A stretch of 25,869 nt of DNA from a virus. Taxonomy: Duplodnaviria; Caudoviricetes. The notes under the pieces are model-generated. The model was not told the origin of the DNA. It saw only the letters and a list, made by a program, of their open reading frames with translations, and made no database searches. The stretch covers positions 1-25,869 of the IMG/VR virus record IMGVR_UViG_3300044674_000385; one strand, 5' to 3'. Shown one piece after another: positions 1-25,869 of this stretch. The first letter of the stretch is position 1, and each line of letters begins with the position of its first letter. Made by a program: the position numbers and the translations under genes.

Positions 1-181
1 TAATCTACTGATTCCTAGTTTTTCTGCTAGGATTGTGAATACAGGAATACCTCTATCACCTAATCTGTTTAAATCTTCTAGTCCTAATCCACCAGCAGTT
101 GTTCTAGCATACAAATCAGTTATGGCTTGTAAAGCACCAACACTGTCTGCGGAAACACTTGCTACATCAGCAAATAAACGT
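1..181. repeat. Terminal direct repeat, left copy (circular or circularly permuted genome, unit length 25,688 bp)
   Basis: 1-181 matches 25689-25869 except at 127/25815 (t/c) and 145/25833 (g/a). Confidence 0.97.
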
Positions 182-498
182 AATTGTTTTATACTAGGAT
201 CTAATCCTGCGGCTTTTAATTTGATAACACTGGCTGTTAGATCTTCAACTGAGAATACACTCTGTTTGGCAAATTCTTTAATTTGTTCAAATGCTTGTTC
301 GCCTAATTGAGCATCTTTATAAAGAATACTTAAACTAGTTCTTAGGTCTTCAAATCTAGCACTAACATTGGCTATTTCTTTAAAAACAAAAGCAGAACCA
401 AATAAAGCACCTAGTCCAGCAAGTGTATTTTTTAAACTACCAATGGATTGCTGGGCACCCCGTGTATCTACGTCTACTGTATATCTTAAATCAGCCAT
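1..498 (-). CDS. Tape measure protein, N-terminal 166 aa (continues across the junction into 25688..23841; 781 aa in total)
   Basis: ATG at 498 gives MADLRYTVDVDTRGAQQSIGSLKNTLAGLGALFG...SARFEDLRTSL...FAKQSVFSVEDLT...LYARTTAGG, in frame with the 653-aa ORF at the window end. Missed by the ORF track. Directly downstream of the tail chaperones and the gp10-like gene. Confidence 0.93.
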   Translation of the reverse strand, partial: MADLRYTVDVDTRGAQQSIGSLKNTLAGLGALFGSAFVFKEIANVSARFEDLRTSLSILYKDAQLGEQAFEQIKEFAKQSVFSVEDLTASVIKLKAAGLDPSIKQLRLFADVASVSADSVGALQAITDLYARTTAGGLGLEDLNRLGDRGIPVFTILAEKLGISRL

Positions 499-499
499 A

Positions 500-796
500 T
501 TATTTCCTTAATATTTCACGGGTAATCAATTTCTTGATGTATTGTTCCGTAGGTTGGCTCATACCCCTTGGTGCTTGTTTACTCCAACCTTTATCTAGAG
601 GGACAGCATAATTGTAATTGGCTTTTATTTTTCTTCCTTGTAGCCTAGTTCTAGCACGAGCATTACCTGTGTCAATTGGAGTTATACCCTTCCAATATTC
701 ATAGGCACGCTGTGGTAATTTTTCAAACTTAGCTACAATTTTTCCAGCACTAGGACTAATTCTATCTCTAGTTTTTCTTAGCTTTACTGTGGCCAT
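500..796 (-). CDS. HK97 gp10-like tail completion/neck protein
   Basis: Basic 98-aa protein with TPIDTGNAR and YAVPLDKGWSKQAPRGM motifs, in the tail module. Confidence 0.75.
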   Translation of the reverse strand: MATVKLRKTRDRISPSAGKIVAKFEKLPQRAYEYWKGITPIDTGNARARTRLQGRKIKANYNYAVPLDKGWSKQAPRGMSQPTEQYIKKLITREILRK

Positions 797-1052
797 TCTT
801 TTTTGCCCTCTCTAACATTTCTTGTAGTTGAACTTGACTTAGTCCGTGATCACTCTTGTCTTTCCAACCACCTTGTTGTTTTTTATTTAGATATGATTCA
901 TAAGCTGTAGCTAGGTTAGCAACACGCATATCTAAATTGTCCCCCAACTTCATTACTTGTGATGGTAGATAACCATATCTCTTAGCAACAAAGTCAAGTA
1001 CCAAATAACTTGAAATGTCAGGAGTTATTTCGTGGAAGTTGGGGTCGCGAAG
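768..1052 (-). CDS. Tail assembly chaperone GT, frameshifted C-terminal part (fusion ~193 aa)
   Basis: The -1 frame from the slippery site is open: LRDPNFHEITPDISSYLVLDFVAKRYGYLPSQV..., ending at 768. The TTG start called at 1004 has no RBS. Confidence 0.85.
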   Translation of the reverse strand, partial: LRDPNFHEITPDISSYLVLDFVAKRYGYLPSQVMKLGDNLDMRVANLATAYESYLNKKQQGGWKDKSDHGLSQVQLQEMLERAKKNGHSKAKKN

Positions 1053-1348
1053 TTTCCCAACGCTTGTACCGTTTTTTCCACAGCCTTGATCATAATGTCA
1101 TTTGGTAAAACATTTCCGTTTACTAGCACAGGATTGCCTTTTTCATCAAGAATAAGGTCTTTCATTACTGCTAATACACTTCCAATATTCTGTCCGCCTT
1201 CAAGGTTGGCCAATTTCATAAATGTTTCCATATCTATACGATCGTATACCCAGAATTCTACGGCTTCACCATACGCCTTTACGATGGTTTCGTCGTCAAT
1301 AGTAATTTTGGTTAGTTTTGGCTCTTTGGCGAGTTCTGTTAGTTTCAT
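1025..1348 (-). CDS. Tail assembly chaperone G
   Basis: 107 aa, between tail tube and tape measure; GGAG RBS; slippery heptamer near the 3' end. Confidence 0.85.
   Translation of the reverse strand: MKLTELAKEPKLTKITIDDETIVKAYGEAVEFWVYDRIDMETFMKLANLEGGQNIGSVLAVMKDLILDEKGNPVLVNGNVLPNDIMIKAVEKTVQALGNFATPTSTK
1052..1058 (-). promoter_or_regulatory. Programmed -1 ribosomal frameshift site G GGA AAC
   Basis: X XXY YYZ heptamer in the correct phase (TTG GGA AAC), analogous to lambda G/T GGGAAAG. Confidence 0.88.
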
Positions 1349-1351
1349 CTG

Positions 1352-1525
1352 TTAGTCTCCTTGTCTTTCTATCAGTTTGTTAAGGACAACAACAAGAAAG
1401 TTTAATCTACTTCTTGCTTTCTTAACGTCCTTTTCAGCACAGTTTAATTCATTATTGGCTTTGTTGATTTCTGCCAATACACTCTGCTGTAGTTCTATAT
1501 CAGTCTTTTTATCTAATACATCCAT
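1352..1525 (-). CDS. 57-aa coiled-coil protein (below the ORF-track cutoff)
   Basis: MDVLDKKTDIELQQSVLAEINKANNELNCAEKDVKKARSRLNFLVVVLNKLIERQGD; AGGA RBS and TAAATA upstream; fills the gap exactly. Confidence 0.8.
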   Translation of the reverse strand: MDVLDKKTDIELQQSVLAEINKANNELNCAEKDVKKARSRLNFLVVVLNKLIERQGD

Positions 1526-1542
1526 TAATCTGTCCTACATTG

Positions 1543-1548
1543 TATTTA
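1543..1548 (-). promoter_or_regulatory. T4-like late promoter core TAAATA (chaperone/tape-measure/tail-tip operon)
   Basis: ACTAAATAC just after a terminator and 17 nt before the ATG at 1525; no -35. Confidence 0.7.
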
Positions 1549-1556
1549 GTCTTTAG

Positions 1557-1585
1557 AAAAAAAGAGGGCCTAAAAAGACCCTCTT
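1557..1585 (-). terminator. Rho-independent terminator
   Basis: AAGAGGGTC-TTTTTA-GGCCCTCTT followed by a T run, downstream of the tail tube gene. Confidence 0.85.
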
Positions 1586-1631
1586 AATGCCCTCTATAGA
1601 GTTGAGAACCATAGCCCTCACGCTCTATAGA
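1557..1631 (-). ncRNA. Putative ~70-nt hairpin small RNA
   Basis: TAAATA at 1632-1637, then TCTATAGAG-CG-TGAGGGC-TATG-GTTCTCA-A-CTCTATAGA (G-U pairs on the - strand), then the terminator; no ORF. Confidence 0.5.
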
Positions 1632-1637
1632 TATTTA
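1632..1637 (-). promoter_or_regulatory. T4-like late promoter core TAAATA
   Basis: ACTAAATAT immediately after the tail tube stop codon. Confidence 0.55.
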
Positions 1638-1643
1638 GTTTTA

Positions 1644-2144
1644 TTATGGTGTTGCTGTATCATCTACAGTGTAGTCACCATCCACAGTAATTGTGATTGG
1701 AGATACCCAAACAGGCGAATCAGCAGATACAGTTGGTGCTAGACCAGTAATGTATCCTGAACCAGTGACTGTTACGCCTTCTGTTCCATCATCTTCGTCA
1801 CCCATATACAGTGAAAAACTAACTTTAGTTTTTAGAGTAGACATACCAAAGATGCCTGCTCCTGCCACTGTAGTGGAACTTGAATATGATCCATCGTCTG
1901 TTCCAAAGAATGAATCTTTGTCAAGAACTAGGTTCATAGCCAAGCTGTTTGTTGCTGTAGTAGCAATTTGGTTTTTGGACGCTGTGTCCAATTGTGTCCA
2001 AGTAAAAACGTCGTTAGCCGCATTAATCGTTACGTCTTGAAGAGCCGCTACACTTAGAGAACCTGTTAAAGTTCCTGCGGAATCTGTAAGACTAAGAGTA
2101 ACCTGCTTTGACGCTACACCTGGTGCTGGATATATATATGCCAT
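1644..2144 (-). CDS. Major tail tube protein
   Basis: 166 aa, beta-rich, Ser/Thr-rich; GSGYITGLAPTVSADSPVWVSPITITVDG resembles siphovirus tube C-termini; lies between tail terminator and chaperones. Confidence 0.85.
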   Translation of the reverse strand: MAYIYPAPGVASKQVTLSLTDSAGTLTGSLSVAALQDVTINAANDVFTWTQLDTASKNQIATTATNSLAMNLVLDKDSFFGTDDGSYSSSTTVAGAGIFGMSTLKTKVSFSLYMGDEDDGTEGVTVTGSGYITGLAPTVSADSPVWVSPITITVDGDYTVDDTATP

Positions 2145-2166
2145 AGTTTTCTTCCTTTATGTTATC

Positions 2167-2562
2167 TTAGGTTTTTACCCTATTGAAGTTGTATTCCACC
2201 TGGCTAACAAGCAAATCGTTCTCATATGTAGTAGAAACTACACAGTTCCTATTTACAGAACCATCAAAAGACACCGTGTCTTTGATGCCTCTTAGAGAAT
2301 CAACTGTACTTGTATAGTTCGCTGGAACGTTCTTAGCATCAACGCTGAAATAGACGGTTACTGATGTTAAGCTATTGTTTACGACGGTTCCATCTAGAGC
2401 AGTCACCAAAGGTTCTTCTGTAGATTGTATTGAGTCAACATAGATAGTTTTTGGATTGAACAAATATAGTCCATTGCCGCCATCATCATATGGAAATTCG
2501 TTTGATACATTGTATCCACTAAGTCCCAAATTTTTGATTTTGTCTAGTACATCTGTTCTCAT
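2167..2562 (-). CDS. Tail terminator/completion protein
   Basis: 131 aa, directly upstream of the tail tube; alternating beta/alpha pattern; stop/start overlap with the upstream gene. Confidence 0.65.
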   Translation of the reverse strand: MRTDVLDKIKNLGLSGYNVSNEFPYDDGGNGLYLFNPKTIYVDSIQSTEEPLVTALDGTVVNNSLTSVTVYFSVDAKNVPANYTSTVDSLRGIKDTVSFDGSVNRNCVVSTTYENDLLVSQVEYNFNRVKT

Positions 2563-3071
2563 TATCTAACTCTCTTAAAGACATATTGGCCTGGATCTTT
2601 TTCAGTGCTGGCAATAGTGCCGTCACTGTCAAAGTCATACCAATCGCCTGCGTTGATCAACTCCGCAAACAATGATTCTGATTTGTTAGCATAAAAACTC
2701 ATCTTAGCTCTTTCAGCATTATCTTCATTTCCAAAGTCTGCTACTTGAGGTAAAATGTATTCTGCTAACGCCTCATAGACAGTCAAATCAGTAAAGTCGT
2801 TTTGCCTGTCAGCAATATTGTCTACGTCCACAGCAGGAATATCTGCCATAGTACGGATGGTGATTGAACTATCACGATTAGTGTAATAACTCCTCCACCA
2901 ATCCGTTTGCCTAATCTTTGCTAGGATTCTTTCCGTTGCTCTGATTAGTGCGTCTTCAACAATATCATCAGTAAGGCCCTCATTTGAATCAAACAGTCTT
3001 TGATCCTTTGCTACTACATCGCTGTAATCAGCAAATGATATAACAGAGTTGTTGTCGTAAATGAAAGCCAT
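2562..3071 (-). CDS. Head-tail connector/adaptor
   Basis: 169-aa helical protein immediately after the capsid gene (ALIRATERILAKIR helix); AGGAG RBS. Confidence 0.65.
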   Translation of the reverse strand: MAFIYDNNSVISFADYSDVVAKDQRLFDSNEGLTDDIVEDALIRATERILAKIRQTDWWRSYYTNRDSSITIRTMADIPAVDVDNIADRQNDFTDLTVYEALAEYILPQVADFGNEDNAERAKMSFYANKSESLFAELINAGDWYDFDSDGTIASTEKDPGQYVFKRVR

Positions 3072-3085
3072 AATCTATCTCCTAA

Positions 3086-3916
3086 TTACACTGCGTCTTG
3101 GATTAAGATACCGCGACCTGCGTCAATTAGAGCTGGTTTTGCGTGTAGGCTAGCAACAATGTCATTACCCACTGCTTCTGCTCTACGTGCTACCTCAATG
3201 TCAACATTTTTCTGCATCGCAATTCTCATTGCGTCTTGACCAAAGATAGCCATTTTAGCACCTGTTACGCCTGTGTTTGTAGCATCTAAGTAAGATGAAA
3301 CAAAGCACTGAACGCCAGCGATTGTGCCAACAAAACCATTTCTTAATGCTTCACTCTGGAAGTCACCACCAGCGTATGCTTGTGATCCAATAGCACTCAT
3401 AAGAGCCGCATATGAACCAGCACCAACTACGCCATATAGTTGACCTGTTTCGCCAGCAGAACGGATTGTTCCAACAGCACTAAAGATTTCGTCTAAGTCT
3501 AAATCACCGCTTGTGATTTCTTGAGCAGTTAGGTTACCCATAACACCCATAACAGCAGTATCAAAAGCATTTGATACAGCGTTACCTAAAACACGACCAA
3601 TTTCGTTTGGATCAATAGCACCCAAGTCTCTTAGGACTGAACGTGCCGCATATAGATCACAAGTGATTGTGTTTTTAGTGTCTGCAGGTAGAACTGCGTC
3701 TACGTCTACACCAGGAGATGCTTCAGCTGAAAGTGTGGTAGCACTAACAGAAGCAAGTTCTGGAACTTGTAGCACACCATTTGGTGCGTTAACAACTGGA
3801 ATCAATTGTCCGCCTAGGAACAATGAAGATTCGTGTGCGGCGTATACTGTTGCCGCTTTTACGGGTACAACTAGAGCATCTGTATTAATAACGGATGCGT
3901 ATGCTGAGTTTGCCAT
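3086..3916 (-). CDS. Major capsid protein (HK97 fold)
   Basis: 276 aa after the scaffold; EIGRVLGNAVSNAFD backbone helix, GFVGTIAGVQCFVS, DIEVARR motifs; strong AAGGAG RBS. Confidence 0.9.
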   Translation of the reverse strand: MANSAYASVINTDALVVPVKAATVYAAHESSLFLGGQLIPVVNAPNGVLQVPELASVSATTLSAEASPGVDVDAVLPADTKNTITCDLYAARSVLRDLGAIDPNEIGRVLGNAVSNAFDTAVMGVMGNLTAQEITSGDLDLDEIFSAVGTIRSAGETGQLYGVVGAGSYAALMSAIGSQAYAGGDFQSEALRNGFVGTIAGVQCFVSSYLDATNTGVTGAKMAIFGQDAMRIAMQKNVDIEVARRAEAVGNDIVASLHAKPALIDAGRGILIQDAV

Positions 3917-3939: not shown

Positions 3940-4626
3940 TTACAAGAGGCCTTTTTGTCTTGCCTCTTTATATAGTTTACGATGTTCTGGATTGCTCATA
4001 TCCAAATTGCTGAGATCAATATCGCCACCTGTGTTTGGAACGCCTACACTACTTCTTGTGTTAGTAGTGCTTGCCCCTGCTCTCTTAAAATGTGGATTTT
4101 GTGTTAACCACTCTTTAACAAATTCATCTACAGATAGCAAATTACCAGAGTCTGTGTATCGCACATTGCCTTCCTTGTCAACAACCTCAACATCTTCGCC
4201 AGTCTCGTTAAGTCTAACGTGTGTAGATAGCAGTTGTCTCACCTGTTCAGGATTGACACTGTCGTATCTTGCGGCGGCGTCAATTAAAGGTGTGTTAACA
4301 CGATACTCTCTAATCATCTGATCTCTTTTTTGGATTTCAGCATCCTTTTTAGAAGCAAGTTCTTGTAGAGTCTTTTCAAACTCACCCCTTTTGAGGGCTT
4401 CTTCTTGGCGACGTTTTTCTTCTTTCGCCTTAAGTTCTTTTAACTCTTCTACATCACCCAAGTCTGCGTATCTGCTTTCTAATTTTTTAGTTAGACTGCC
4501 ACGCATACGAGCCATCATATTATCTACCTCGTCTTGTGTGTATGTTTTTACTGCTTCTGCCTGATTTTCAGTTGTTACTTCAGCATCAGTTGCTGGGTCA
4601 TTAGCCAATGTTTGTTCTACGGTCAT
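3940..4626 (-). CDS. Capsid scaffolding protein
   Basis: KTYTQDEVDNMMARMR motif, charged coiled coil (EKRRQEEALKRGEFEKTL), WLTQNPHF; precedes the capsid gene. Confidence 0.88.
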   Translation of the reverse strand: MTVEQTLANDPATDAEVTTENQAEAVKTYTQDEVDNMMARMRGSLTKKLESRYADLGDVEELKELKAKEEKRRQEEALKRGEFEKTLQELASKKDAEIQKRDQMIREYRVNTPLIDAAARYDSVNPEQVRQLLSTHVRLNETGEDVEVVDKEGNVRYTDSGNLLSVDEFVKEWLTQNPHFKRAGASTTNTRSSVGVPNTGGDIDLSNLDMSNPEHRKLYKEARQKGLL

Positions 4627-5146: not shown

Positions 5147-6616
5147 CTAAGATGCCTCCACTGGAGCCACGCCTTCTCCTGGGTGGAACCAACCCTGTGC
5201 GGCCAATTCCAAATGTTCTTCTTCCGTACGAGCAAGTCTACGTTCTCCTGTTTGTGGATCCTCCATTATGTGAGGTTCAAAGTCTGGTAATTTTATTTCT
5301 TCTTCTAGGTCCATCCAATCAAGCAATTGACGATCAATTTGTTTTATAACTTTAGGATCTGTAGCAGTTTCTTTTGCTGTTCTTAACTGTTGGATTTCAC
5401 TTGCTTTGTCTCTGATGTTGAAACTGTTAGGATACATAATATCTCCATTCCAGTCAACACCTAGATAGTATGACATCATCTTCCACATCTGTTCTTCAGC
5501 AAGTTGTAGTGAACTTGCTTTCTGAGAAAGACGAGCATTAAGTAGACTGAATTCAACTTCCATTGCTACGCCACTCATTGTTCTTGATTCTGAGGCACGC
5601 ACAGCACCTGTGTTAGCCATCTTGTCAATTGCGGCTGTGGTGTGTTCAATGCTTTTGTAGATTGAATCAATACTTGCTCCTGAAAACTCAAGAGCGTATG
5701 GTTTTAAGCCAGGGTCTAAATTCTCTTCTATTTGAATAACTGATCCTGGCCCAACACCCAAGTTTGTGTTTGGTGTAGCAACAACACTAGGATGAGTGTC
5801 TAGTTTGATCGCTTCAACTGCCTCTGACGTACAGTTATAGATCATCTTCTGTGCGTAGGCAATATCTTGGATGTCTGAAATACCAATGCCTCTAACCTCT
5901 GAACGCTGGTTATAGGCACAAATTGCTGGGATCCATCCAAGTTCATTAGGTTCTTCAACCCTTGAAATGATGCTTTGTTCTTCAGTGTCAACAACACTGG
6001 TAACAATTACTTCTGGATACCATTCTTTGATTGTTTGTTGACTACCATTAAAGTCTTCTACATACTTGAAATAATCTAATTTGTATTTTCCAATTGGATT
6101 TCTATACCAATTCCAGTCAGTTACTGCCAATGGCGTCAACATATTAAGATATGGACGCACACCTGCTTCTAATTCTTCTGCCTGTGTTGCTAAACTTAGG
6201 TTAGGTTTGGTTAATATTAGCCAGCAGTGTCCAAAAACTGAACTCCAAGTGCTGACTTCACGCATAATTTCATTAAGACTGCGACCATCTTGATCAGCAT
6301 CTTTCAAAAATTCTTCTACTACAGGATTGTTTTCTAGTCCGCCTAGTTCTCTCCAAGGCTCTTCTCTAAATAAAAAACTATTGTAAACACTTACTACACT
6401 TTTACAATGGTTTTCTAGTGGTGTTGTTTGAAGTCTGTTGTTGTATTCTCTTGGTGTTTCCAATTGATACTTGGTTAGATGTCCTGCTTCAGTGTAGACT
6501 TCTCCGCCTAAATAACTTTGGTAGGCAAATTCCCAACGTTCTCTATATGTTGTATAGATATCATTGGCACTGAGCAAGGTTGATATTTGATTTTGTATTA
6601 ATTGATTAGCGTCCAT
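5147..6616 (-). CDS. Portal protein (SPP1 gp6-like)
   Basis: 489 aa after TerL; YLGG, TPLENHCKSVVSVYNSFLF, LGWIPAICAYN, SDIQDIAYAQKMIYN, SGVAM motifs. Confidence 0.92.
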   Translation of the reverse strand: MDANQLIQNQISTLLSANDIYTTYRERWEFAYQSYLGGEVYTEAGHLTKYQLETPREYNNRLQTTPLENHCKSVVSVYNSFLFREEPWRELGGLENNPVVEEFLKDADQDGRSLNEIMREVSTWSSVFGHCWLILTKPNLSLATQAEELEAGVRPYLNMLTPLAVTDWNWYRNPIGKYKLDYFKYVEDFNGSQQTIKEWYPEVIVTSVVDTEEQSIISRVEEPNELGWIPAICAYNQRSEVRGIGISDIQDIAYAQKMIYNCTSEAVEAIKLDTHPSVVATPNTNLGVGPGSVIQIEENLDPGLKPYALEFSGASIDSIYKSIEHTTAAIDKMANTGAVRASESRTMSGVAMEVEFSLLNARLSQKASSLQLAEEQMWKMMSYYLGVDWNGDIMYPNSFNIRDKASEIQQLRTAKETATDPKVIKQIDRQLLDWMDLEEEIKLPDFEPHIMEDPQTGERRLARTEEEHLELAAQGWFHPGEGVAPVEAS

Positions 6617-6627: not shown

Positions 6628-7869
6628 TTACCTTACAGCCCAGGTCCTTGGTTGTTTGATTGTTACTGTCTTCCTAATAGGATACAGGTATGCCACACAA
6701 TAGGACAACGCATCAAACATATGGTCATAACCTGAATCTTTATCAGGTTGTTGACTGCCTTCTTTGAAGGTATGTTTATCTAAACTCTCTATAACATATT
6801 TAGCCTTTGAGCTAACAAACAGGTGATTTTTACCATCTGCGGAGCTGAAACGAGCGTTTATAGCATTGATACGATCTTTAACAGGATCGTGTTTGCGTGG
6901 TGCCTTGACAGCAAAGCCTTTGTTGGCCAGTATCAAATGGTCACTCACACCACCACTTGAAGTCTGCGATCTTGACCCACTAGGATCTGGGAATACTGTG
7001 ATTTTACTGTGTGGGTATCTCGCACGGATCTCATCCGCTACTTCTGCTGTGTGTGAATTTGGTAGTTTTACTTCATCTATTACGTAGATGTCATCGCCTT
7101 GTTGAACTGCTATAGCGGCCACACAAGGATTGATATTGAAGTCCATTCCTATGATTAAATTTTTAGTATCTAGCACAGGAGGTTCTTTGATCATAGTTTC
7201 TCTGTCCCAGGCCCAAGCAACACGATTTGAGAAACTTTCAAACGTAGCAAGAAACTCTTGTCTATACTGTTTGTCACTCATATCCTGCTTTGCGGCTTCA
7301 AGTTCATCAAGTGTAACAAAGCCACCATCTGCTGTTGTGTATTGGAATGCGGCCCAGTCTTTGTTTTTAGGCTCGCCAGCAAATGTGTATAGGTCAAAGA
7401 AAGGATTGGCCAGGCCTTTGGGTGTGCCAATAAAAAGGGCTCCGCCCTTACGATCCGCCAGAGCAGGACGTAGCACTTCTCCCCACAGTTCTTCAAGCTG
7501 GCAGTCAGCGGCTTCATCTATTACAACATAGTCTAGTGAGATACCTCTTAGTTTGTTAGGATCATCTGACCCTTTTAAACTAATGGTGCTACCGTTCTTA
7601 AGCACAATAGTTAATTCAGTTTCGTTTATTTTGAACACCCATCTTAGATCCGTTAGTTTGTTTTTAAGAGGTTTCCACATAATCATTTTGGCCGCACGAT
7701 AACTTGTGGTAACATACATTATGTCCTTGTTGGGAACACGGGCACGGTAACAGATTTCTCTTAGGCTGAGAAATGATTTACCAAACCTTCTGCCTGCGGC
7801 TACACATTTAAATCGTGACTCATTGTCTGCGATTGTTCTCTGGGGATCACTTAGCTTCAAATTGTTCAC
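6628..7869 (-). CDS. terL: Terminase large subunit
   Basis: Walker A AGRRFGKS, Walker B LRGISLDYVVIDEAA, motif III FIGTPKG, nuclease IGMDFN and DHMFDALSY. Confidence 0.97.
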   Translation of the reverse strand: MNNLKLSDPQRTIADNESRFKCVAAGRRFGKSFLSLREICYRARVPNKDIMYVTTSYRAAKMIMWKPLKNKLTDLRWVFKINETELTIVLKNGSTISLKGSDDPNKLRGISLDYVVIDEAADCQLEELWGEVLRPALADRKGGALFIGTPKGLANPFFDLYTFAGEPKNKDWAAFQYTTADGGFVTLDELEAAKQDMSDKQYRQEFLATFESFSNRVAWAWDRETMIKEPPVLDTKNLIIGMDFNINPCVAAIAVQQGDDIYVIDEVKLPNSHTAEVADEIRARYPHSKITVFPDPSGSRSQTSSGGVSDHLILANKGFAVKAPRKHDPVKDRINAINARFSSADGKNHLFVSSKAKYVIESLDKHTFKEGSQQPDKDSGYDHMFDALSYCVAYLYPIRKTVTIKQPRTWAVR

Positions 7870-17825: not shown

Positions 17826-17844
17826 TGAGTCCTCCTTCTAAGTT

Positions 17845-17876: not shown

Positions 17877-17882
17877 ACTAAA

Positions 17883-18296
17883 TTATGCTAGGCTAATTGT
17901 TAAGTTGCCTGCTGAAACCTGGAATGTGTCACCAGATTCAATTGTCTTAGAAGTTGTCACAGCACCGTGGAATAACACGTTACCGCCAGTTGAAGCATCC
18001 ATTACTGCTACGTGAGTAATAGTTCCCCAGTTAGCAGTTGCCGCTGGAAATGTAATAGTTTGTGTGTTAGATGTTGAACCGCCTGAAGCAGTGTCAAAAG
18101 CACCTGATGCTGAATCAACGTCAATGTCTTGACGAGCATATGAACCACCTGAAACTTCAGATGTAATTGTGCCTGATTCTAGGCCATCGTCAGCTGTCCA
18201 TAAACCTAGGTATAGGTTAGTTGGCTGAGTAAATGCTGTGTTGTTAAGTACGTGATCTAGTACTTTGTTTTCTAAATAATCGCTTGCCGCACTCAT
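17883..18296 (-). CDS. Abundant tail fibre/decoration-type structural protein
   Basis: Start ATG 18296 with AAGGAG RBS (137 aa); SDYLENKVLDHVL...YLGLWT...EVSGGSYARQ...FPAATANWGTITH...GDTFQVSAGNL; has its own promoter and terminator. Confidence 0.75.
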   Translation of the reverse strand: MSAASDYLENKVLDHVLNNTAFTQPTNLYLGLWTADDGLESGTITSEVSGGSYARQDIDVDSASGAFDTASGGSTSNTQTITFPAATANWGTITHVAVMDASTGGNVLFHGAVTTSKTIESGDTFQVSAGNLTISLA

Positions 18297-18369
18297 AGTA
18301 TTCTCCTTATCATTAGATTGTCTGAGTTCATTATAAACGACAGACAATCAAATGTTGTCTGTTCAATAG

Positions 18370-18416: not shown

Positions 18417-20276
18417 TCAATCCCAGTATCCTGTAAATGTAGATACTGTGCCTGTTAATAATGTATCTCCACCACTAGGTAAAGGATCAAAACTTGTTAT
18501 AACATCAATTTGAGCACCGCCAGCACCTGTAACATTATCAATGTTTACTGTTGAGTCTATGCTTAATGCCGCACTGCTTTCACCTGGATTAGTTACACTA
18601 ATAGCAGTTGGCACTGCCGTTCCACCCACTGGTGCTCTTGGTAGTAATGCGTATTTTTTAACAGCAATGCTTTTTAGGTATTGTGTATCAGCGTCAAATG
18701 TTCCGCACCAAATTACAGGAACACTTACATAGTCGCATTCAAAGTCACCTGGTTTAGATACACTTGGTGGTATTGGTCCTGTTGTGTCATTGTTAGCAAC
18801 TTGTATGGTAACACTGTTGCTACTAACACCACAATAATCTGTAGGTTCACCTGTGTATGTAAATGTTACTACAAGATCTTCATCTTCATTATAGGTGCTG
18901 TTATCTGTGGTAACAATTGATCCTAAACTACCTGCGTTTGAAGTAATAGTAACAGTGCCAGTTAGTGCTGGCGAACTTACTTTACCACTAGCTGATCCTG
19001 TGATAGCATAGTTTATTGTGTCAGCATCATCAATACCTACAGTAGTAATATCTACACTTGTTACAGTATCTCCTTCTGTAATGCTTGTAGAACTAGCAGT
19101 TATACTAGCCGCATATTTGGTAGGAGCAGGAGATACATCATAACTTGTTGAGTTATCTCCTAGGTTTACTTGTATAGTTTTTTGTTCAGTAACAGTTGGT
19201 GTAAATGATAAACTGGCTGAATTGCCTATTGATTTGACTGTGCCTGAAAGAGGTATGTTAACTTCACTAGCAGTACATCCACTAATACTGTAATTGTAGG
19301 TATAGTCTGGAGTGTTGATAAAACATACTTCACAATCGTGTTGTGCTGTTAGTGTAATTGGTGTGCCACTACAAATAGTTGTATCAGCTGGTTCGTCGTG
19401 TGTTAGACTTGGAATCTTAGCACCTGCTTCCATTAATTCTTGGGTAGCATCGTCAGCAAATTTTAGTTCTTGTTGATTTGTTTCTGTGCCTTCATCACTT
19501 GTTAAGAAACTTCTTAACAAACCTAAACCTAGATTGGCCGCAAGTAATCTTCCCATTTGATTACCAAACGCAAAATCATCTTTTGCGTCAATGTCAGTGT
19601 TGAATACTTTAGATTTGATGCCTGTAAAATTGCTACGATATTCATATGTCAAACCAGTGTCAGTAAAAATGTTGGCATCATATTCTTGAGCAATAACACT
19701 GAAGATTAAATTGCCGTCATCAGTATCTTCTTCATCAACTTGTATAACTCTAAATAATTTGTTAGTAAAATCTAGAGCATTGTTTGTTACGTCAATTAGA
19801 TCGCCTGCCCTCAACGCATTAGCTTCAAAGTTTGCTCTAAATTCAATAATTTTATCTAGTCTACTTTGTTTTAGTTCTCTACTGGCAATAAACTTTGCCT
19901 GTGTAGGATCATTAACAGTAGGTAATTCAATTTGTAATTGGTTGTCTAGTTCTTGCGGGAATCTATCTGCTGTAGCAATGTTTAAAACTATAACATCTGT
20001 TGTGTCTCTTGTATCTCTGTTAGGAAATGTAACTTGAACACTGTTATACATTTCATTAACACCACTACCACTAAGACTTATTTCTCCAATAATATTATCA
20101 TCATCAAAACTTTTAGTGCTAGAACCAGTTGTGTTTAGAATAACGCTCCATTGACCTAGACTAGGATCCCAAGTTAAGAAACAACTACCACTTGTTGCTA
20201 TTTGATCTATATTAGCAAGAACATTGTTGCTTGTATCAATTATACCGTTAATTCTAGATTTATTATTAGTAGCCAT
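18417..20276 (-). CDS. Tail tip/central hub protein (gpJ-like, C-terminal part) with Ig/Calx-beta-like domains
   Basis: RINGIIDT, FDDDNIIGEISL, YNSVQVTFP, LRAGDLIDVT, KLFRVIQV, AQEYD; ITASSTSITEGD in the C-terminal half. Confidence 0.75.
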   Translation of the reverse strand: MATNNKSRINGIIDTSNNVLANIDQIATSGSCFLTWDPSLGQWSVILNTTGSSTKSFDDDNIIGEISLSGSGVNEMYNSVQVTFPNRDTRDTTDVIVLNIATADRFPQELDNQLQIELPTVNDPTQAKFIASRELKQSRLDKIIEFRANFEANALRAGDLIDVTNNALDFTNKLFRVIQVDEEDTDDGNLIFSVIAQEYDANIFTDTGLTYEYRSNFTGIKSKVFNTDIDAKDDFAFGNQMGRLLAANLGLGLLRSFLTSDEGTETNQQELKFADDATQELMEAGAKIPSLTHDEPADTTICSGTPITLTAQHDCEVCFINTPDYTYNYSISGCTASEVNIPLSGTVKSIGNSASLSFTPTVTEQKTIQVNLGDNSTSYDVSPAPTKYAASITASSTSITEGDTVTSVDITTVGIDDADTINYAITGSASGKVSSPALTGTVTITSNAGSLGSIVTTDNSTYNEDEDLVVTFTYTGEPTDYCGVSSNSVTIQVANNDTTGPIPPSVSKPGDFECDYVSVPVIWCGTFDADTQYLKSIAVKKYALLPRAPVGGTAVPTAISVTNPGESSAALSIDSTVNIDNVTGAGGAQIDVITSFDPLPSGGDTLLTGTVSTFTGYWD

Positions 20277-20280
20277 CTGT

Positions 20281-22104
20281 TTATCCTATATCATACCAAT
20301 ATATTTTGGTACCTCTTTCTGTTGTTGCGTCACCTACAACTAATTTATCTGTGCCATCAAAAGCAAACATACCACCAAAACGTGGATAGTAACTAGGTGG
20401 TGTTGCTTCATCACTTAAGGCATCTGGCGGATAAATTTTCTTGCCTGTAATTTGTGTTGCTGTGCTTGGATCATATATCCAAACTCTTCCATTTACATTT
20501 GTTTTTACACTGGTCATTGAACTTATAAACAGATAATCGTCTGTCATAGTCATATGTCTACCAAATTCTGTGTCACCAGTAACTGGGCTACTCATACTAG
20601 GAGGAGATGGTATATTTCCTATTAGAACTCCTGTTGATTTGTTGTAAACCCAAACTTGTCCATCTCCATCATCTGAGTATGAAGCAACTGCTACATAACT
20701 ACTGCTGATTGCCACACTGCTACCAAACCCTGCGTCAAATAAATTAGCAGGTGTAGTTGTTTGTGTTAGAGTGTGTCTTAGAGTAGATCCTTGGTATACA
20801 TATGCTTTGTTTTGTCTAGGAGCTCCTGCTACAAACCATCCGTCATATGCGGCTAACATATTTTGTGGATTGTTGTTATCAACTAGATCTGTTTGTGTAA
20901 CACTAAATCCTAAAGTGCCAGCATCACAATCAACATAGTGTACTGTGTCAGTGCCTGGAGCACTTACTACTACAATGTCATTGGCATAGTCATATACTTC
21001 TACTTCAAATCCAAAATATTCATTTCCTGTAGTTGTTGGATTTATTGATCTTTGGTGAACACCGCTTTTATTAAACACGTGAACAACACCATCTGAGAAT
21101 GAATCAACATCTTCTTGTGGTGACCCTACTACTAGGTAATTGTCTGTTATTGCTACCGCAGTACCAAAGTTAGCATTAGCTTCAGGAGTAGGATTTGCTA
21201 CAAGTAAAACTTCATCTAAACTTGTATCATAAACATATGCTACACCAGAATTTGATAAAGGAGTTGGAGGAGGATCGTCAGATAGTTCTCCAACAAAGTC
21301 ATCTTCATTTCTTGCTCCCATCAACACTTTTGTTCCATCGTATGCTAAATCTGTCACAAAATGGTCAACAGCATCTGTAGGATCACGTTGCGGATTAGCT
21401 AAAGTTAGATATGGTGCTAACGCTTGTGGTGTTACTGCTCCTGCTTCACTTATGGTAGCAACACTTGAAAGCGTTGCCGCAGGGCTTACATAATCTACTC
21501 TAGATTGTGCTATTATACTGCCTCTTGCTACTAACAAAATACCAGTAGTATCTGGTAACATTGAAGCAACCATTGGCAGACTTAAATTAGCACTACCAAA
21601 TACTTTTGTAGCTTGACAAGTTAAAGTAGCAACTGCTTCGCAAATTGTTTCAGGAATGTATAAACCTACTTGCCAACTTTTGGTTTTTGGAGTACTGTTG
21701 TTTGTGTAATTTATTGAACTGTCATAAAAGAAACTACCAAAAAAAGTGCTAGGCACTGTAATAGTTGGTGCCGCTACTTGATCCCAAATATCTCTGCTGT
21801 CTATACCATCTATTGTATAAACTTGATTATAGATACTTACACTACAACCACTTGGCACAACACTCCAAGTAACAGTTGCTCCTGGCACAGCACTAACATC
21901 AATGCTGTAACTACATCTTGCTTCAGCTGGTTTAATCACTTCAATAATATCTATTGTTCTTTCCGCTGAGAAAGATTGAGCTGTAATTGTTTTATTAATA
22001 TCTCTTGCTGTAGGAAAACTAAACAACACATCACTAGGTCTGTTATCTGTAAATGTAAAAGTGCCGTCGCTAAAATTGTTTAATTCTAATAATGTTGTTG
22101 TCAT
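20281..22104 (-). CDS. Tail protein with FG-GAP-like beta-propeller
   Basis: Repeats FGTAVAI...VVGSP, FGFEVEV...VVSAP, FGSSVAIS, FGRHM, with SGVAYVY/GVVHVF/GQVWVY/GRVWIY. Confidence 0.8.
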   Translation of the reverse strand: MTTTLLELNNFSDGTFTFTDNRPSDVLFSFPTARDINKTITAQSFSAERTIDIIEVIKPAEARCSYSIDVSAVPGATVTWSVVPSGCSVSIYNQVYTIDGIDSRDIWDQVAAPTITVPSTFFGSFFYDSSINYTNNSTPKTKSWQVGLYIPETICEAVATLTCQATKVFGSANLSLPMVASMLPDTTGILLVARGSIIAQSRVDYVSPAATLSSVATISEAGAVTPQALAPYLTLANPQRDPTDAVDHFVTDLAYDGTKVLMGARNEDDFVGELSDDPPPTPLSNSGVAYVYDTSLDEVLLVANPTPEANANFGTAVAITDNYLVVGSPQEDVDSFSDGVVHVFNKSGVHQRSINPTTTGNEYFGFEVEVYDYANDIVVVSAPGTDTVHYVDCDAGTLGFSVTQTDLVDNNNPQNMLAAYDGWFVAGAPRQNKAYVYQGSTLRHTLTQTTTPANLFDAGFGSSVAISSSYVAVASYSDDGDGQVWVYNKSTGVLIGNIPSPPSMSSPVTGDTEFGRHMTMTDDYLFISSMTSVKTNVNGRVWIYDPSTATQITGKKIYPPDALSDEATPPSYYPRFGGMFAFDGTDKLVVGDATTERGTKIYWYDIG

Positions 22105-22862
22105 TGTACATTAATCTCGCTTACTGGTATACCCGCACCATATCTTGTATTGGTTAGGTAATCATACATTACATCACCTGGTTTAGTCATTGTGTTTGAC
22201 AGTTTAAATTTGATATCTCTACCTATTGTTGTTAATTTGTTTTTAGCATCATATTGTATTCTTAAGATACAAAAGATTGTATCATTCATTTGATCAGTAG
22301 ACGACCAGCCTGGCATAATATCATATGCGTTACTGGTATTGCCTGTTGACTCACTTGTAAAACTTGTAGGACTAGTGCTTGATCCATTGAATGGATAAAC
22401 TTTTATTTTGTTTTGCCAAACACTGCTTGAATTACCATTGTCATCATAAATTAAATCACTGGTTATACCATCACTCTTAAAACTGATTCTAAAATTATCA
22501 AAATATATTTCTTCAAAACTTATTACACTAGGAGCAGTGCTAATTAAACGTCCTGTCTTTTCACAAAGAGCAAGACAGATAAACATTGCTGTGTTATTGT
22601 CTGCTAGTCTAGCATCTACAATCTTACCACTGATATAACCACTACCATATAACACAGGTAATGAATATTGTGTGTCTGGATCAATAGTTACTTCAGTGCC
22701 TTGAGGTGTTGTATCCTTGTTTGCTTTGTTAGCACTTTTGTTTAGGCGATTCAAAGCATAACCTAGCAGTGCTGTTCTTGCTAAACTACTGCCAATACTG
22801 TTTCCTTTTAGAAAACCAAATGCCTGTTTGCCTACACTTTTTATGCTATCTATAAAACTCAT
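22101..22862 (-). CDS. Tail tip protein, N-terminal part (gpI/J-like)
   Basis: LPVLYGSGYISG, ALCE, C-terminal KPGDVMYDYLTNTRYGAGI. Confidence 0.75.
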   Translation of the reverse strand: MSFIDSIKSVGKQAFGFLKGNSIGSSLARTALLGYALNRLNKSANKANKDTTPQGTEVTIDPDTQYSLPVLYGSGYISGKIVDARLADNNTAMFICLALCEKTGRLISTAPSVISFEEIYFDNFRISFKSDGITSDLIYDDNGNSSSVWQNKIKVYPFNGSSTSPTSFTSESTGNTSNAYDIMPGWSSTDQMNDTIFCILRIQYDAKNKLTTIGRDIKFKLSNTMTKPGDVMYDYLTNTRYGAGIPVSEINVQ

Positions 22863-23455
22863 TAAGGTGCTCCAAAATCAAATTTAGTGCCTTTTAGTGT
22901 AGGCACTCTACTCATTGCTGTGTCAGTTGGATAAAATTTTTGATGACTTTCTGGATTTGTTTTTCTACCTGATATCTTTTGAGATAACAAATCAACAGTG
23001 CTGGCACATTCTAACAATACTAAATTAGTAGCATCTCTTTCTTCAAGATCAAATTCTTCTTGTAGAGAGTAGTTGTTTACACTACCTATAAATCTTGCTT
23101 CAACTGTGTCAATCAAAGTATCTGTAGCAACATCAAAATAACCACGATATATTTTTATAGGAGCACTTTTAATTTTACTGTGAACAATTTCGTTAATGCT
23201 GTTAGTAGGCACACCTGAAAGTGTTACTGTAATTGTGTTTGAACTTGCTCTTAATTCACTTGAACTAGGAGATATGTTTAGTAATTTGCCAAGAGGTATA
23301 TAACTTTCACTATTGATTACAATAGTTGAATCAAAGTCGCTAAATGTTAAAACTTGAGGAGAATATGAACCGCCACTGCCTGTTCTATATTCATCTATCT
23401 GTAGTCTAACAAATAGGCCTGTTTTGACACTTGTATATGTGTCTAAGTTTGCCAT
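22862..23455 (-). CDS. Tail hub/gpL-like minor tail protein
   Basis: ITVTLSGVP, IKIYRGYFD, RFIGSV, GRKTNPESHQKFYPTDTAMSRV; second gene after the tape measure. Confidence 0.7.
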   Translation of the reverse strand: MANLDTYTSVKTGLFVRLQIDEYRTGSGGSYSPQVLTFSDFDSTIVINSESYIPLGKLLNISPSSSELRASSNTITVTLSGVPTNSINEIVHSKIKSAPIKIYRGYFDVATDTLIDTVEARFIGSVNNYSLQEEFDLEERDATNLVLLECASTVDLLSQKISGRKTNPESHQKFYPTDTAMSRVPTLKGTKFDFGAP

Positions 23456-23836
23456 CTATACCTCCACAAAAACAAATGGACCGCTCCATCTTACTTGGTC
23501 ATATCCAAACAATTCCCATTGAGGGAAAGCAACACAAATTACATTGTAATTTTCTTCACTGCCTCCTGGGTCAACGTTTCCATAATACCAAGGTACTCTA
23601 GAATATAGAATACTAATGTTATCTGTTGTGTGTCTATCTAAAGCCTCAGCACTTTCAATGTCTGATTTGTAGTCACTCCAACGTGGTCCATCTGGTAGTC
23701 TTACTGTAAATATCTTTTTAGGTGTTCCACGACTCACAGCTTTGACTGTTCCGTTTCTAGATTGTGTGCTTGCCACAGTATCAAGTCTATTGATACTTAA
23801 ATTTGTAGCGTTGTTGAATATCCATTGAAAACTCAT
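23456..23836 (-). CDS. Distal tail protein (Dit/gpM-like)
   Basis: 126 aa immediately after the tape measure; SRNG and terminal WSGPFVFVEV. Confidence 0.65.
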   Translation of the reverse strand: MSFQWIFNNATNLSINRLDTVASTQSRNGTVKAVSRGTPKKIFTVRLPDGPRWSDYKSDIESAEALDRHTTDNISILYSRVPWYYGNVDPGGSEENYNVICVAFPQWELFGYDQVRWSGPFVFVEV

Positions 23837-23840
23837 CTAT

Positions 23841-25869
23841 CTATCTCCCTACTGGTACTTTTCTAGCACCTTGTGATGCTACTGCGTGAATAAAGCCAGG
23901 ATCACTTGCTACTAACTGTTTGAAACTTCTAGCATCTACTGCGTTAATATTATATGTTACATTGCCTCCTCCAGCACCTAAAGGAGTAACAGTGCCTGGA
24001 CCTGATACTAGTTCAGGACCATTTTCACCAACAACACCAAATGTGCCTGCTGGTATCATACCACCATTAGCAAAGAAACCACTAAACATTCTGCCTAGTT
24101 GACTTCCTCCACCTCCAGCACCACCAAATCCACTGAATGTTTGGGCAATCAACTGTTGAATTTGACTTCTCAATAATTGTTCTAGAATATCATTGATTAG
24201 GTCTTTGAATTCTAGTTTACCTGTTTTAACAAAATTAACAATGGTATCTTCCATTCCTTTTGTAACTTTGTTAAACATTTCGCCTGCTTTCTTAGCGGCG
24301 TTTGTAGCATTGTCTTGATAACTTTGGAATGCTTCTTTCCAACCATATTCAAATGAACGTTGATATTCTCTTTGTTGTTTGGCAGTTTCAGTTATCTTTT
24401 CAAATGCTTTTGTTGCTTCATTTTCTAGAATTTTGATTTCAGCAAGGTATTGATCAGTTGTAATTAAACCATCTTCCCATAGGTATTTGATCTTTCTAAT
24501 ACTTGCCGCTAGTTTATCATCAATACTACGACGTATACCTTCAAGTTCTCTTTGAAATGGTGTTAGTTTAAGATCTTGTAGAGCATTATCTGCTTCTCTG
24601 ATCATATCATTAAAGTCTTGTTGTAACTTTCTATGATTGTCAGTTAACAGTATACTTGCTTCTTGCTGTTGACGTATTTCTTCACGTAACTCTAGTTCTT
24701 GTCTTAAACCGCCTAGTGTTTCATTATACAGATCAGTAATTAAACCAATTTGCTTTTCAATCTCATCTGCTTGTGCTCTGCTTTCTTGAGTGTCTTTTGC
24801 TCTTAATTCTGTAATTTCTCTTTGTAAAGGATTAATTGTGTTATAATATCTTTGTGTGAAGGCATTTAATTCTCTTTGAACATTGGCTTGACTTTCTGTC
24901 ATCTTTAACAATTTGCCTTCTTGTTCAACAGATAATTTTAACGCATTTACACCTTCTTCATAGGTAGCAAAGTAATCAATAGCACTTTTTGTTACTTCGT
25001 CTTGTTTATTTTTTAATTCTTCTAGTTGAGCTCTAAAATCTGTAGTAGCACCAGCATCAACTTCAGGTGCTTGTGTTAGAGGTCCATCTGGAATTTGAAA
25101 TGCGTCGCCTTGATTTTTAAGGTTTTCTAAATCTTCACCTAGTTTTTTAATTGCGTCAGATGATTCAGATGTAGCTTCTTCAATTTGATCAACAATCACT
25201 AATGCGGCCGTAACACCTGCGGCAACTTTTACTAAACCAACACCTGTAACACCTTGTAACAAGGCACCTGCTGTTGCCGCTTTCCTAAATCCATCAGCAA
25301 GTTGTAGAACACTGCCTGCTATGTTTAAGATTACGCCTGCTGTAGCGTATGTAAACACACCACCAATAATAGCGGCAAGATATTTTAAGTTTTCAACTAG
25401 GAATGTAATTGTAGCACCAAAGCCAGCACCTAGTGTTTCAATTAATTCATTATTTTTTTCTATGAAAGCAGTTATGCTAAAAACTGCTTGTGTTAACGCA
25501 TCATTAAAACCGCCTTCACCAAAAGTATCTGCCGCACCTTGTAATGCGTCACCTAGGTTACTAAATGCTTGACTTAGATTGTTGGCTCTTTGTTCAGAAG
25601 AACCACTAAATGTTTCACTTAGTCCTTCTTCTAAAGCACGTAGGATAATTTGTGCTCCTTCAGCACTTTGTCCTAATTTTGAAATTTCTAATCTACTGAT
25701 TCCTAGTTTTTCTGCTAGGATTGTGAATACAGGAATACCTCTATCACCTAATCTGTTTAAATCTTCTAGTCCTAATCCACCAGCAGTTGTTCTAGCATAC
25801 AAATCAGTTATGGCCTGTAAAGCACCAACACTATCTGCGGAAACACTTGCTACATCAGCAAATAAACGT
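23841..25869 (-). CDS. Tape measure protein, main part (N-terminus at 498..1)
   Basis: LEDLNRLGDRGIPV tape-measure domain, long coiled coil, lambda gpH-like C-terminus (GWKEAFQSY...FVKTGKLEFKDL...FANGG...VVGENGPEL). Confidence 0.93.
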   Translation of the reverse strand, partial: RLFADVASVSADSVGALQAITDLYARTTAGGLGLEDLNRLGDRGIPVFTILAEKLGISRLEISKLGQSAEGAQIILRALEEGLSETFSGSSEQRANNLSQAFSNLGDALQGAADTFGEGGFNDALTQAVFSITAFIEKNNELIETLGAGFGATITFLVENLKYLAAIIGGVFTYATAGVILNIAGSVLQLADGFRKAATAGALLQGVTGVGLVKVAAGVTAALVIVDQIEEATSESSDAIKKLGEDLENLKNQGDAFQIPDGPLTQAPEVDAGATTDFRAQLEELKNKQDEVTKSAIDYFATYEEGVNALKLSVEQEGKLLKMTESQANVQRELNAFTQRYYNTINPLQREITELRAKDTQESRAQADEIEKQIGLITDLYNETLGGLRQELELREEIRQQQEASILLTDNHRKLQQDFNDMIREADNALQDLKLTPFQRELEGIRRSIDDKLAASIRKIKYLWEDGLITTDQYLAEIKILENEATKAFEKITETAKQQREYQRSFEYGWKEAFQSYQDNATNAAKKAGEMFNKVTKGMEDTIVNFVKTGKLEFKDLINDILEQLLRSQIQQLIAQTFSGFGGAGGGGSQLGRMFSGFFANGGMIPAGTFGVVGENGPELVSGPGTVTPLGAGGGNVTYNINAVDARSFKQLVASDPGFIHAVASQGARKVPVGR
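25689..25869. repeat. Terminal direct repeat, right copy
   Basis: 179/181 identical to 1-181. Confidence 0.97.

Follow-up and report, generated by a model that had tools for sequence, protein, structure and literature searches.

A closed, fully tailed small phage genome as a putative satellite of PA5oct/Rak2-related aquatic jumbo phages

Background

Satellites that encode much of their own particle have been described in Streptomyces: as far as the published accounts of MiniFlayer, MulchRoom and Ando describe them, these satellite viruses encode terminase, portal, capsid and scaffold and carry no replication genes, MiniFlayer has no integrase, and the helpers are large virulent phages (PMC10690885; PMC13587820). 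Genomic island I55, a satellite of the Pseudomonas jumbo phage JPTI55, is reported to integrate at tmRNA and to be packaged in helper capsids (PMC12772148), and the PLEs (elements resembling phage-inducible chromosomal islands) of the lytic vibriophage ICP1 are reported to make a small RNA, SviR, that lowers translation of helper targets (bioRxiv 10.1101/2022.04.08.487710). The available text of a 2026 review gives ICP1, MindFlayer and I55 as the only systems with large helpers (PMC13359090). Here we analyse a 25,869-nt stretch of viral DNA (Caudoviricetes; IMG/VR record IMGVR_UViG_3300044674_000385), referred to throughout as the window. Our preferred reading, in which we have reasonable confidence, is that it is the genome of a satellite virus with its own head, packaging motor and non-contractile tail, which draws on a PA5oct/Rak2-related jumbo phage for late transcription, probably for replication, and for endolysin, and damps the head genes of that helper.

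That the element depends on a helper in some form, as we infer from its sequence, is highly likely. An earlier reading of the same DNA, made from its letters alone (the original prediction), had proposed a closed, virion-only element that borrows replication, late transcription and lysis from a co-infecting T4-like phage. In our literature search, with subscription journals and supplements outside its scope, we came across no satellite that is fully tailed and linked to T4-type jumbo phages, nor any account of this family as satellites.

Results

The two ends of the window overlap, positions 1-181 matching 25689-25869 with 2 mismatches, which gives a closed unit of 25,688 bp, and the frame of a 781-amino-acid (aa) tape-measure protein continues across the join. 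One 8,187-nt Logan contig, an independent assembly possibly of the source sample, spans 18017-25869 and continues into 1-515. The predicted closure, with a gene reading through it, is therefore borne out. Because this evidence consists of short-read assemblies only, because the overlap copies differ at two positions, and because IMG/VR classes the window record as linear, we considered whether the window might be a mis-circularised or excised virion block from a larger genome, to which we give almost no credence. Besides the gene that crosses the join and the separate assembly that bridges it, IMG/VR assigns the terminal-repeat class to 3 of 15 related records (23.6, 25.4 and 26.1 kb), whose break points differ, and a fourth has a 77-nt repeat near its end. 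Moreover, no contig exceeds 30 kb in any of three sets of 80 loci: the largest is 27,266 nt for TerL (best 80 of 97 confirmed), 26,062 nt for capsid (best 80 of 170) and 29,836 nt for metagenome TerL (best 80 of 128). Seven sequencing runs that contain at least half of the sampled words of the window are all estuary metagenomes.

Every called gene lies on the minus strand. Scans against PHROG, Pfam and NCBIfam identified genes for TerS, TerL, portal, scaffold, capsid, neck, tape measure, tail tip and fibres, together with an HNH-like nuclease and an FkbM methyltransferase, while the tail-tube, terminator and chaperone calls are by gene position alone; no tail sheath was recognised in the tail-tip block. 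The same scans recognised in the window no polymerase, primase, helicase, single-stranded DNA-binding protein (SSB), initiator, integrase, repressor, sigma factor or endolysin family and no partition gene, and no tRNA was found there. Family searches thus agree with the original prediction on the co-oriented genes, on the encoded head, packaging motor and non-contractile tail, and on the missing modules. Its statement that all unassigned non-virion open reading frames (ORFs) are of 169 aa or less does not hold, as a 238-aa phrog_8198 gene was found. Its inventory is further extended by a holin-like ORF of 88 aa and by sigma-70 promoters of consensus type, of which there are two (Table 1).

For comparison we assembled 17 small genomes: the window, 15 IMG/VR records (14 whole; of G014 the first 20,000 of 20,732 bases) and DSL-LC06, the sole deposited relative of such layout found. 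These genomes are related, and G007-G009 are near copies, so counts across the set are not independent. Their virion genes are syntenic, and the relatives form an aquatic family on contigs of up to 24-30 kb. Eight jumbo-phage core proteins (gp55, putative clamp, family-B polymerase PolB, gp46, gp47, SSB, UvsX and exonuclease) gave no tblastn match at E<=1 in the 17 genomes. TerL and capsid scans of 185,579 GTDB genomes, whose reach is limited to close relatives, returned no relative and hence no prophage or host.

Four features of the window point to one group of phages, aquatic PA5oct/Rak2-related jumbo phages, and we therefore propose these as helper. The first is the hexamer TAAATA. It is not enriched over the window as a whole (22 occurrences against 28 expected); the signal lies in position and strand. 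Although intergenic DNA makes up about 5% of the window, 9 of 14 sense sites and none of 8 antisense sites are intergenic, and across the 17 genomes the counts are 103 of 206 sense and 14 of 93 antisense. The places where sites recur are upstream of the scaffold, gp80-like, 57-aa, HNH, terS and portal genes. Over the set, the scaffold gene has 16 intergenic sites ahead of it, and the portal box inside terL keeps a conserved distance of ~190 nt. An ATG stands exactly 11 nt 3' of TAAATA in 23 of 59 cases, versus 11 of 330 for control hexamers. Since the T4 late 8-mer is reported to start at -13 (PMC2988020), this ATG would itself be +1, which predicts leaderless late messenger RNAs. T4-type late promoters have a TA(TA)AATA box about one helical turn before the start and no -35 element; the window boxes likewise show no conserved -35 position and agree in the 6-mer core, the full TATAAATA being present once. 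In jumbo fragments TAAATA ranks first among its permutations in intergenic DNA (103 vs 78), with an ATG 10-11 nt past it in 30 of 100 cases, and for the Rak2-like phage CBB a predicted ATAAATA late motif before structural genes is reported along with a gp55-like sigma (PMC5259590). A jumbo gp55-type sigma would, on this likeness, recognise the TAAATA boxes of the window.

The second feature is a non-coding stretch (11405-11598) homologous to a structured element of the jumbo gp55-gp47-gp46 operon. The motif occurs in an estimated ~730 IMG/VR stretches, and the best alignments between the window element and the loci of the motif scan reach 72-87% identity over 100-200 nt. In all five large jumbo fragments (104-145 kb, 29-40% complete) it lies downstream in an operon of the late sigma, gp47, gp46 and a GIY-YIG gene; among 80 flanked loci the neighbours are of jumbo type at 76, of satellite type at 2 and of neither type at 2. 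The late sigma belongs to phrog_12791; its nearest counterparts are the sigmas of PA5oct/MIJ3, Phosso and Atu_ph07, followed by those of Rak2-like phages. In a core alignment of 55 sequences, 98.8% of cells pair under a pseudoknotted structure; the 26 two-sided changes (4.4 in shuffles) are confined to 4 of 24 pairs, and 4 pairs are reached by 68 of 500 shuffles. The core model also finds the element in four further small-genome types outside its training set, at 59-96 bits. A small ORF before the element is common to G004 and jumbo-context loci, and a GIY-YIG gene is common to four relatives and jumbo phages at 46-51% identity. The anatomy of the element resembles that of a ColE1-type RNA-primed replicon, and we regard it as a candidate replication-primer RNA or origin; an origin role in the jumbo phages is likewise a candidate.

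In 4 of the 5 jumbo fragments, guanine-cytosine skew has its turning points at a distance of 5-6 kb from the element, but these coincide with a switch of gene direction at gp55. Raised read depth over 11251-11700 in three estuary runs reflects other carriers of the element and is too weak to speak for co-occurrence. The non-coding region matched no cultured phage or plasmid, and Rfam gave no match in the window (E<=1), in 14 loci (gathering score) or in 7 loci (E<=1), so that a link to the Polynucleobacter-1 RNA motif (RF01718; listed in PMC2864571) found no support. For PA5oct, the available account describes sigma-70-like promoters, together with four non-coding RNAs located at other positions (PMC7318152). 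The gap that separates gp46 from the baseplate hub in PA5oct, which is the gene neighbourhood of the jumbo element, contains 18 nt (L426:21519-21536) equal to window 11675-11692 with one mismatch; we do not count this match as evidence.

The third feature is a protein tail. All 80 jumbo family-B polymerases examined end in xx[NT]TFxSLF[DE]FG, and a regular expression for such tails, tuned after inspection of the data, matches 18 of 29 early-family proteins, as against 4 of 427 in the rest of the family and 17 of 446 among jumbo proteins; it also matches 4 of 7 further early proteins. The early gene of the window encodes a 169-aa protein of a family-wide group (29 distinct sequences) that we predict to bind a sliding clamp through its polymerase-like tail. 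As to the clamp itself, a 243-aa gene near the jumbo polymerase has a clamp annotation in 2 of 30 listed matches, and a PCNA-family clamp and gp33 are reported for group-2 jumbo phages (PMC7824862). One glycosyltransferase of DSL-LC06 also has a polymerase-like tail. The 169-aa protein is modelled as all-helical (predicted local distance difference test, pLDDT, 90) and has no match in PHROG or Atlas, nor in PDB at E<=0.001. Its best VIA Z is 5.5, to generic helical bundles, and among viral models the only good matches of those listed are two uncharacterised proteins of uncultured phages. The idea that it is a hidden sigma factor or Rep found no support, there being no sequence match, tblastn with jumbo gp55 included, and no sigma among the fold matches listed, although a true family may be missing from such listings. 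A sigma-70 pattern lies within 160 nt upstream of the early gene in 8 of 26 cases and, in a shorter search, in 0 of 7 new loci, which rules out that this gene always stands 3' of a sigma-70 promoter.

TAAATA promoters, an RNA-type origin candidate and clamp-binding-like tails were the three features on which the original prediction leaned. All have counterparts in gp55-encoding aquatic jumbo phages, the tails resembling those of the cognate PolB, so that its T4-like helper stands as a gp55-encoding phage and is better described as a PA5oct/Rak2/Atu_ph07-related jumbo phage.

A fourth link, beyond those three, is an antisense match to the jumbo capsid start. On the 3' side of the zinc-ribbon gene a TAAATA box stands before a folded stretch (fold z -3.2) that ends in terminator-like hairpins and that we predict to be a late small RNA. 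Among 720 jumbo start windows ATGTCAGAAC occurs at the capsid gene only (3 of 5 fragments), and ATGTCAGAA is present at 58 of 71 parsed jumbo capsid starts (9 of the 80 loci being unparsed), the loci having been picked by protein similarity that includes the N-terminus. Of the family regions, 13 in a set of 21 and 1 in a further 6 contain the anti-capsid 8-mer, versus 7 of 1,685 background windows, a background that includes those regions. There are two other conserved seeds: one (17 of 21) matches the start of the gene that comes first in the jumbo head operon, and one (14 of 21) matches the 5' leader of that gene. This leader was found in 28 of 42 loci, and the window itself is without the leader seed. 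In many cases the late promoter of the small RNA (window 11950-11961 and equivalents) runs across the end of the zinc-ribbon gene, covering its final codons and stop, and this accounts for the -DK C-terminus that recurs in the protein family.

These four features also bear on whether the element could be an autonomous minimal lytic phage, using host replication and an activator of its own that we fail to recognise, with its jumbo-like signals as captured relics and its small RNA as a weapon against a competitor met in chance co-infection. Two small conserved proteins without assigned function, a zinc ribbon of 92 aa and a helical protein of 169 aa, could supply such an activator; gene exchange with jumbo phages is evident from the GIY-YIG gene and the small ORF before the element; and the publication on DSL-LC06 presents it as an uncultured phage of the ordinary kind, with no use of the word satellite in the main text available (PMC10611076). 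We nevertheless hold this to be quite improbable: no endolysin was recognised, the TAAATA spacing is exactly that of the jumbo phages with no conserved -35 position, the 169-aa protein has no sigma factor among its sequence matches or its listed fold matches, and four separate features indicate one and the same phage group.

The putative replication module varies within the family. One slot, located between terS and the small RNA, is filled differently from relative to relative: by the jumbo-type element, a second non-coding type, a gene of 335-490 aa with polymerase-A-like motifs, or other genes. This swapping supports the view that the slot is the replicon. Members of the polymerase-A-like family are found at L084:2061-3128 (-), L181:2546-4018 (+) and L565:1402-2427 (-), with 44 homologues mostly on short contigs or contigs of up to 24-30 kb and one on a 169-kb contig named Burkholderia vietnamiensis; the slot proteins have no Pfam, PHROG or PDB match. 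The candidate Rep of G002 and G013 has conserved Y-D-I and H-D-G columns, and a single-sequence model of the G002 protein (pLDDT 41) was too poor to use. The original prediction suggested a check on whether closed genomes of 20-30 kb, collected by TerL and capsid, also lack these modules. The closed relatives agree in unit size; with candidate Rep genes in some relatives, the absence of replication genes is not a property of the whole family, which leaves room for host-driven, plasmid-like replication.

The same slot holds further variety. An antisense gene pair (171 and 189 aa) occupies it in G005 and its kin (L089:1347-2431 (+); L190; L069; L562), and the second non-coding cassette, in G001, G003 and others, lies 3' of a basic ORF of 99-120 aa (L082 ~4950-5300 (+); L085 ~1650-2030 (-)). 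Some relatives also have P-loop-like ORFs of 265-287 aa, read by eye (L552:1660-2523 (-); L570:1386-2183 (+)), which match no reference family protein. The cassette of G006 is inverted (L091:60-1400; L092 from ~4300), and its two contig ends are different cassettes between common flanks, as if two strains differed in the slot alone. The non-virion block of relatives carries glycosyltransferase, FkbM and DNA-methyltransferase cargo (L099:1732-9017; L535:2322-3173; L537:3348-4031; L183:14490-15824).

It is here that a phage-plasmid has to be considered, that is, a circular replicon maintained by host enzymes through a sigma-70 RNA primer and hairpin array, or through a small Rep in relatives, which would need the jumbo phage just for late transcription and lysis. 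Such a replicon would account for the consensus sigma-70 promoter directed into the element and for a slot that alternates RNA-type cassettes with candidate Rep genes, and it would solve the problem of co-infection without an integrase. Copy-control RNAs such as that of ColE1 match their own leader, and the 9-nt match of the predicted small RNA to the element's own leader resembles this. We nonetheless think a phage-plasmid unlikely, as the GTDB scans found no relative within their reach, plasmids gave no match to the non-coding region, neither a partition gene nor a repressor gene could be recognised, and the element sits in jumbo context at 76 of 80 loci.

The remaining features of the window are collected in Table 1. 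In the neck and tail block the genes beyond 500-796 have no useful family match; they are kept in 13-17 of the 17 genomes and were placed by position. The 92-aa zinc-ribbon ORF gave weak leads only in Atlas and family searches. Within the fibre block, the 925-aa protein (12840-15617) has degenerate repeats at multiples of 60 nt (20 aa) and no family match, and it could serve as an adhesion or helper-attachment fibre. The LamG fibre resembles cyanophage baseplates (37-41% over 40% of the protein), a likeness that we did not use for a host call.

Table 1. Positions of features in the 25,869-nt window
Feature	Positions	Strand	Basis and remarks
End overlap	1..181		Pairs with 25689-25869; join bridged by one Logan contig
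Tape measure, 5' part	1..498	-	Frame through join
Neck/tail block	500..3071	-	98-aa neck-like gene (500-796, phrog_169/5); 78-, 107- and 57-aa genes; likely tail tube 166 aa, likely terminator 131 aa, likely head-tail protein 169 aa
Major capsid protein	3086..3916	-	phrog_267, E 1e-8
Head scaffolding protein	3940..4626	-	phrog_206; TAAATA 4660-4665 upstream
Portal, SPP1-type	5147..6616	-	Family scans; TAAATA 6797-6802 inside terL
Terminase large subunit	6628..7869	-	Family scans
HNH/endonuclease VII-like protein	7847..8203	-	118 aa from likely start; phrog_1035, E 7e-5; cluster in 11 of 17 genomes
FkbM-family methyltransferase	8214..9029	-	C-terminus HNTFETMFETQ, jumbo-polymerase-like
169-aa all-helical protein	9019..9528	-	Family-wide; tail TQFEKVFEFEH; predicted clamp binder
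Sigma-70 promoter (9631-9659), then TATAAATA (9556-9563)	9556..9659	-	Sequence; upstream of 169-aa gene
238-aa gene, phrog_8198	9810..10526	-	Non-virion block; no homologue in 16 compared relatives
Terminase small subunit	10682..11139	-	phrog_309; TAAATA 11134-11139, 11 nt before ATG; predicted leaderless late messenger RNA
Short hairpin-motif array	11344..11394	-	3' of structured element; similar arrays after jumbo element; putative function
Core of pseudoknotted element common to jumbo phages	11405..11598	-	Sequence homology; candidate replication-primer RNA/origin
Sigma-70 promoter (11728-11756) and TAAATA (11710-11715)	11710..11756	-	Sequence; directed into element
Predicted late small RNA	11768..11961	-	TAAATA 11956-11961; motifs against ribosome-binding site and start; two terminator-like hairpins
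11-nt complement of jumbo major-capsid start	11855..11865	-	In hairpin of predicted small RNA
92-aa zinc-ribbon protein	11959..12237	-	Conserved; 20 distinct homologues
88-aa coiled-coil protein, holin-like (weak)	12234..12500	-	C-terminal hydrophobic segment, hydropathy 2.4; haemolysin/XhlA-type matches
Fibre block	12500..18347	-	gp77-like adaptor, 925-aa repeat protein, LamG/Gly-rich protein, 206-aa protein, gp80-like protein; TAAATA 18370-18375 upstream
Tail-tip block	18417..23836	-	Phage-tail_3 protein, FG-GAP protein, 253-, 197- and 126-aa genes
Tape measure, 3' part	23841..25869	-	781 aa, starts at 498, runs through join; Pfam Tape_meas_lam_C, E 5e-22

Discussion

Under the satellite reading, the placement of these features suggests the following course of infection. 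After entry, host sigma-70 would transcribe the 169-aa gene and the structured element from the promoters present in the sequence. The element may then act as an R-loop primer and origin served by the helper replisome, the weakest step of the scheme, while the 169-aa protein would dock on the helper clamp by its polymerase-like tail. Late in infection the gp55-type sigma of the helper would read the TAAATA boxes before the terS, portal, scaffold-capsid, tail and fibre genes, and the head operon of the helper would be the target of the late small RNA, which by pairing with the operon leader and with the capsid start would lower head production by the helper. Release would probably be by the helper endolysin, possibly timed by the holin-like protein of the satellite.

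The helper-dependent element of the original prediction is upheld in that promoters, tails and origin candidate lead to one helper group. Dependence for replication is weaker than dependence for late transcription, because the origin candidate has a sigma-70 promoter of its own and some relatives have a candidate Rep.

Several observations weigh against a satellite of this kind. A perfect sigma-70 promoter on the element makes host-driven priming possible, and the core model did not find the jumbo-type core in G001, G003, G005, G007, G011, G012 or DSL-LC06, nor in G002 apart from one weak 21-bit match elsewhere. In the slot, G002, G013 and L565 have a gene of 341-490 aa whose polymerase-A-like motifs were read by eye, G005 has another gene pair, and G001 and G003 have the second non-coding type, all finds of which are on contigs no longer than 25 kb (9 of 9). 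On the helper side, the core was not detected in a 45-kb PA5oct stretch around gp55, and the jumbo gp55-type sigmas (G016-G020; 275-300 aa) lack an obvious C-terminal clamp tail such as the epitope of T4 gp55. The post hoc tail pattern and the N-terminal bias of the capsid loci count here as well. As for the small RNA, the downstream leader that it matches over 9 nt belongs to the window itself, the leader of G007 likewise contains the anti-capsid target, and one non-capsid jumbo start gives a better (lower) duplex energy than the capsid start. Finally, small ORFs of 92, 60, 63 and 115 aa have no assigned role, and with no recognised integrase the meeting with a helper is unaccounted for.

Extended to its relatives, the satellite reading describes a widespread aquatic family of fully tailed phages of jumbo phages, each with its own virion, a captured RNA-primed origin, a clamp-docking protein, late genes on a gp55-type sigma and a multi-seed antisense RNA directed at the head operon, a bacterial counterpart of virophages among the small siphoviruses. 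The evidence for this wider proposal is, in our judgement, evenly balanced. If it is true, many small tailed genomes of aquatic viromes that are counted as independent would parasitise abundant jumbo phages, whose bursts they may limit, and capsid-encoding satellites, with a few Streptomyces cases that are tailless or short-tailed, would gain a large family that is fully tailed. Promoter, tail motif and antisense seeds would offer sequence handles that name a helper group without culture, and for the replication origin of these jumbo phages, which is unmapped, the captured element would provide a minimal candidate of natural source.

Comparison with known systems

The original prediction held an element that makes its own particle without replication genes to be the reverse of classic satellites. 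The arrangement itself stands, but as capsid-encoding satellites without replicase are known from Streptomyces, it has a precedent in bacteria. Like MiniFlayer, MulchRoom and Ando, the window encodes its own virion proteins and no recognisable replication genes. These satellites do not appear among the 40 listed of 2,098 TerL matches, and the comparison is by description. MulchRoom and Ando are described as using the helper tail (PMC13587820), whereas in the window a tape measure is accompanied by full blocks of tail-tip and fibre genes; for MiniFlayer a tail fibre and adaptor are given and a tape measure is not, whereas the window has one (PMC10690885). Nor do the published descriptions of this type give a helper-type late promoter, a shared origin element or an anti-helper RNA, for all of which the window has candidates (PMC10690885; PMC13587820).

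The other satellites differ more. In contrast to P4, phage-inducible chromosomal islands (PICIs), capsid-forming PICIs and PLEs, the window has no integrase family and no GTDB relative within the reach of the scans, it has neither primase nor Rep, and it has its own tape measure and tail-tip genes. PLEs integrate, encode Rep and take virion parts from their helper. The virion of the window is self-encoded, and the predicted target of its small RNA is the capsid operon of the helper; SviR, as it has been reported for PLEs, is nevertheless a precedent for an anti-helper small RNA. I55 is an integrating island packaged by its helper, whereas the window lacks an integrase and encodes its own particle, and EPIPs, as far as their account goes, differ from the present element (PMC12822802).

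With T4 late transcription (gp55/gp33/gp45; PMC2988020) and with CBB (PMC5259590), as these are reported, the window has in common -10-only TAAATA boxes with the same +1 spacing before virion genes and, with the T4 system, hydrophobic-acidic C-terminal tails. Unlike T4, it has the promoters and none of the factors, and only the 6-mer core is conserved. The nearest deposited genome, DSL-LC06 (OR003941), is a 29.8-kb circular relative whose TerL is 43% identical, with no annotated replication gene and with intergenic TAAATA; unlike in the window, the jumbo-type core was not detected in it. Virophages of eukaryotes use the late promoters of their helper. As described, they too build their own particle and are parasites of giant viruses, and being of an unrelated lineage and another host domain they are comparable to the putative satellite by functional analogy only (PMC13359090).

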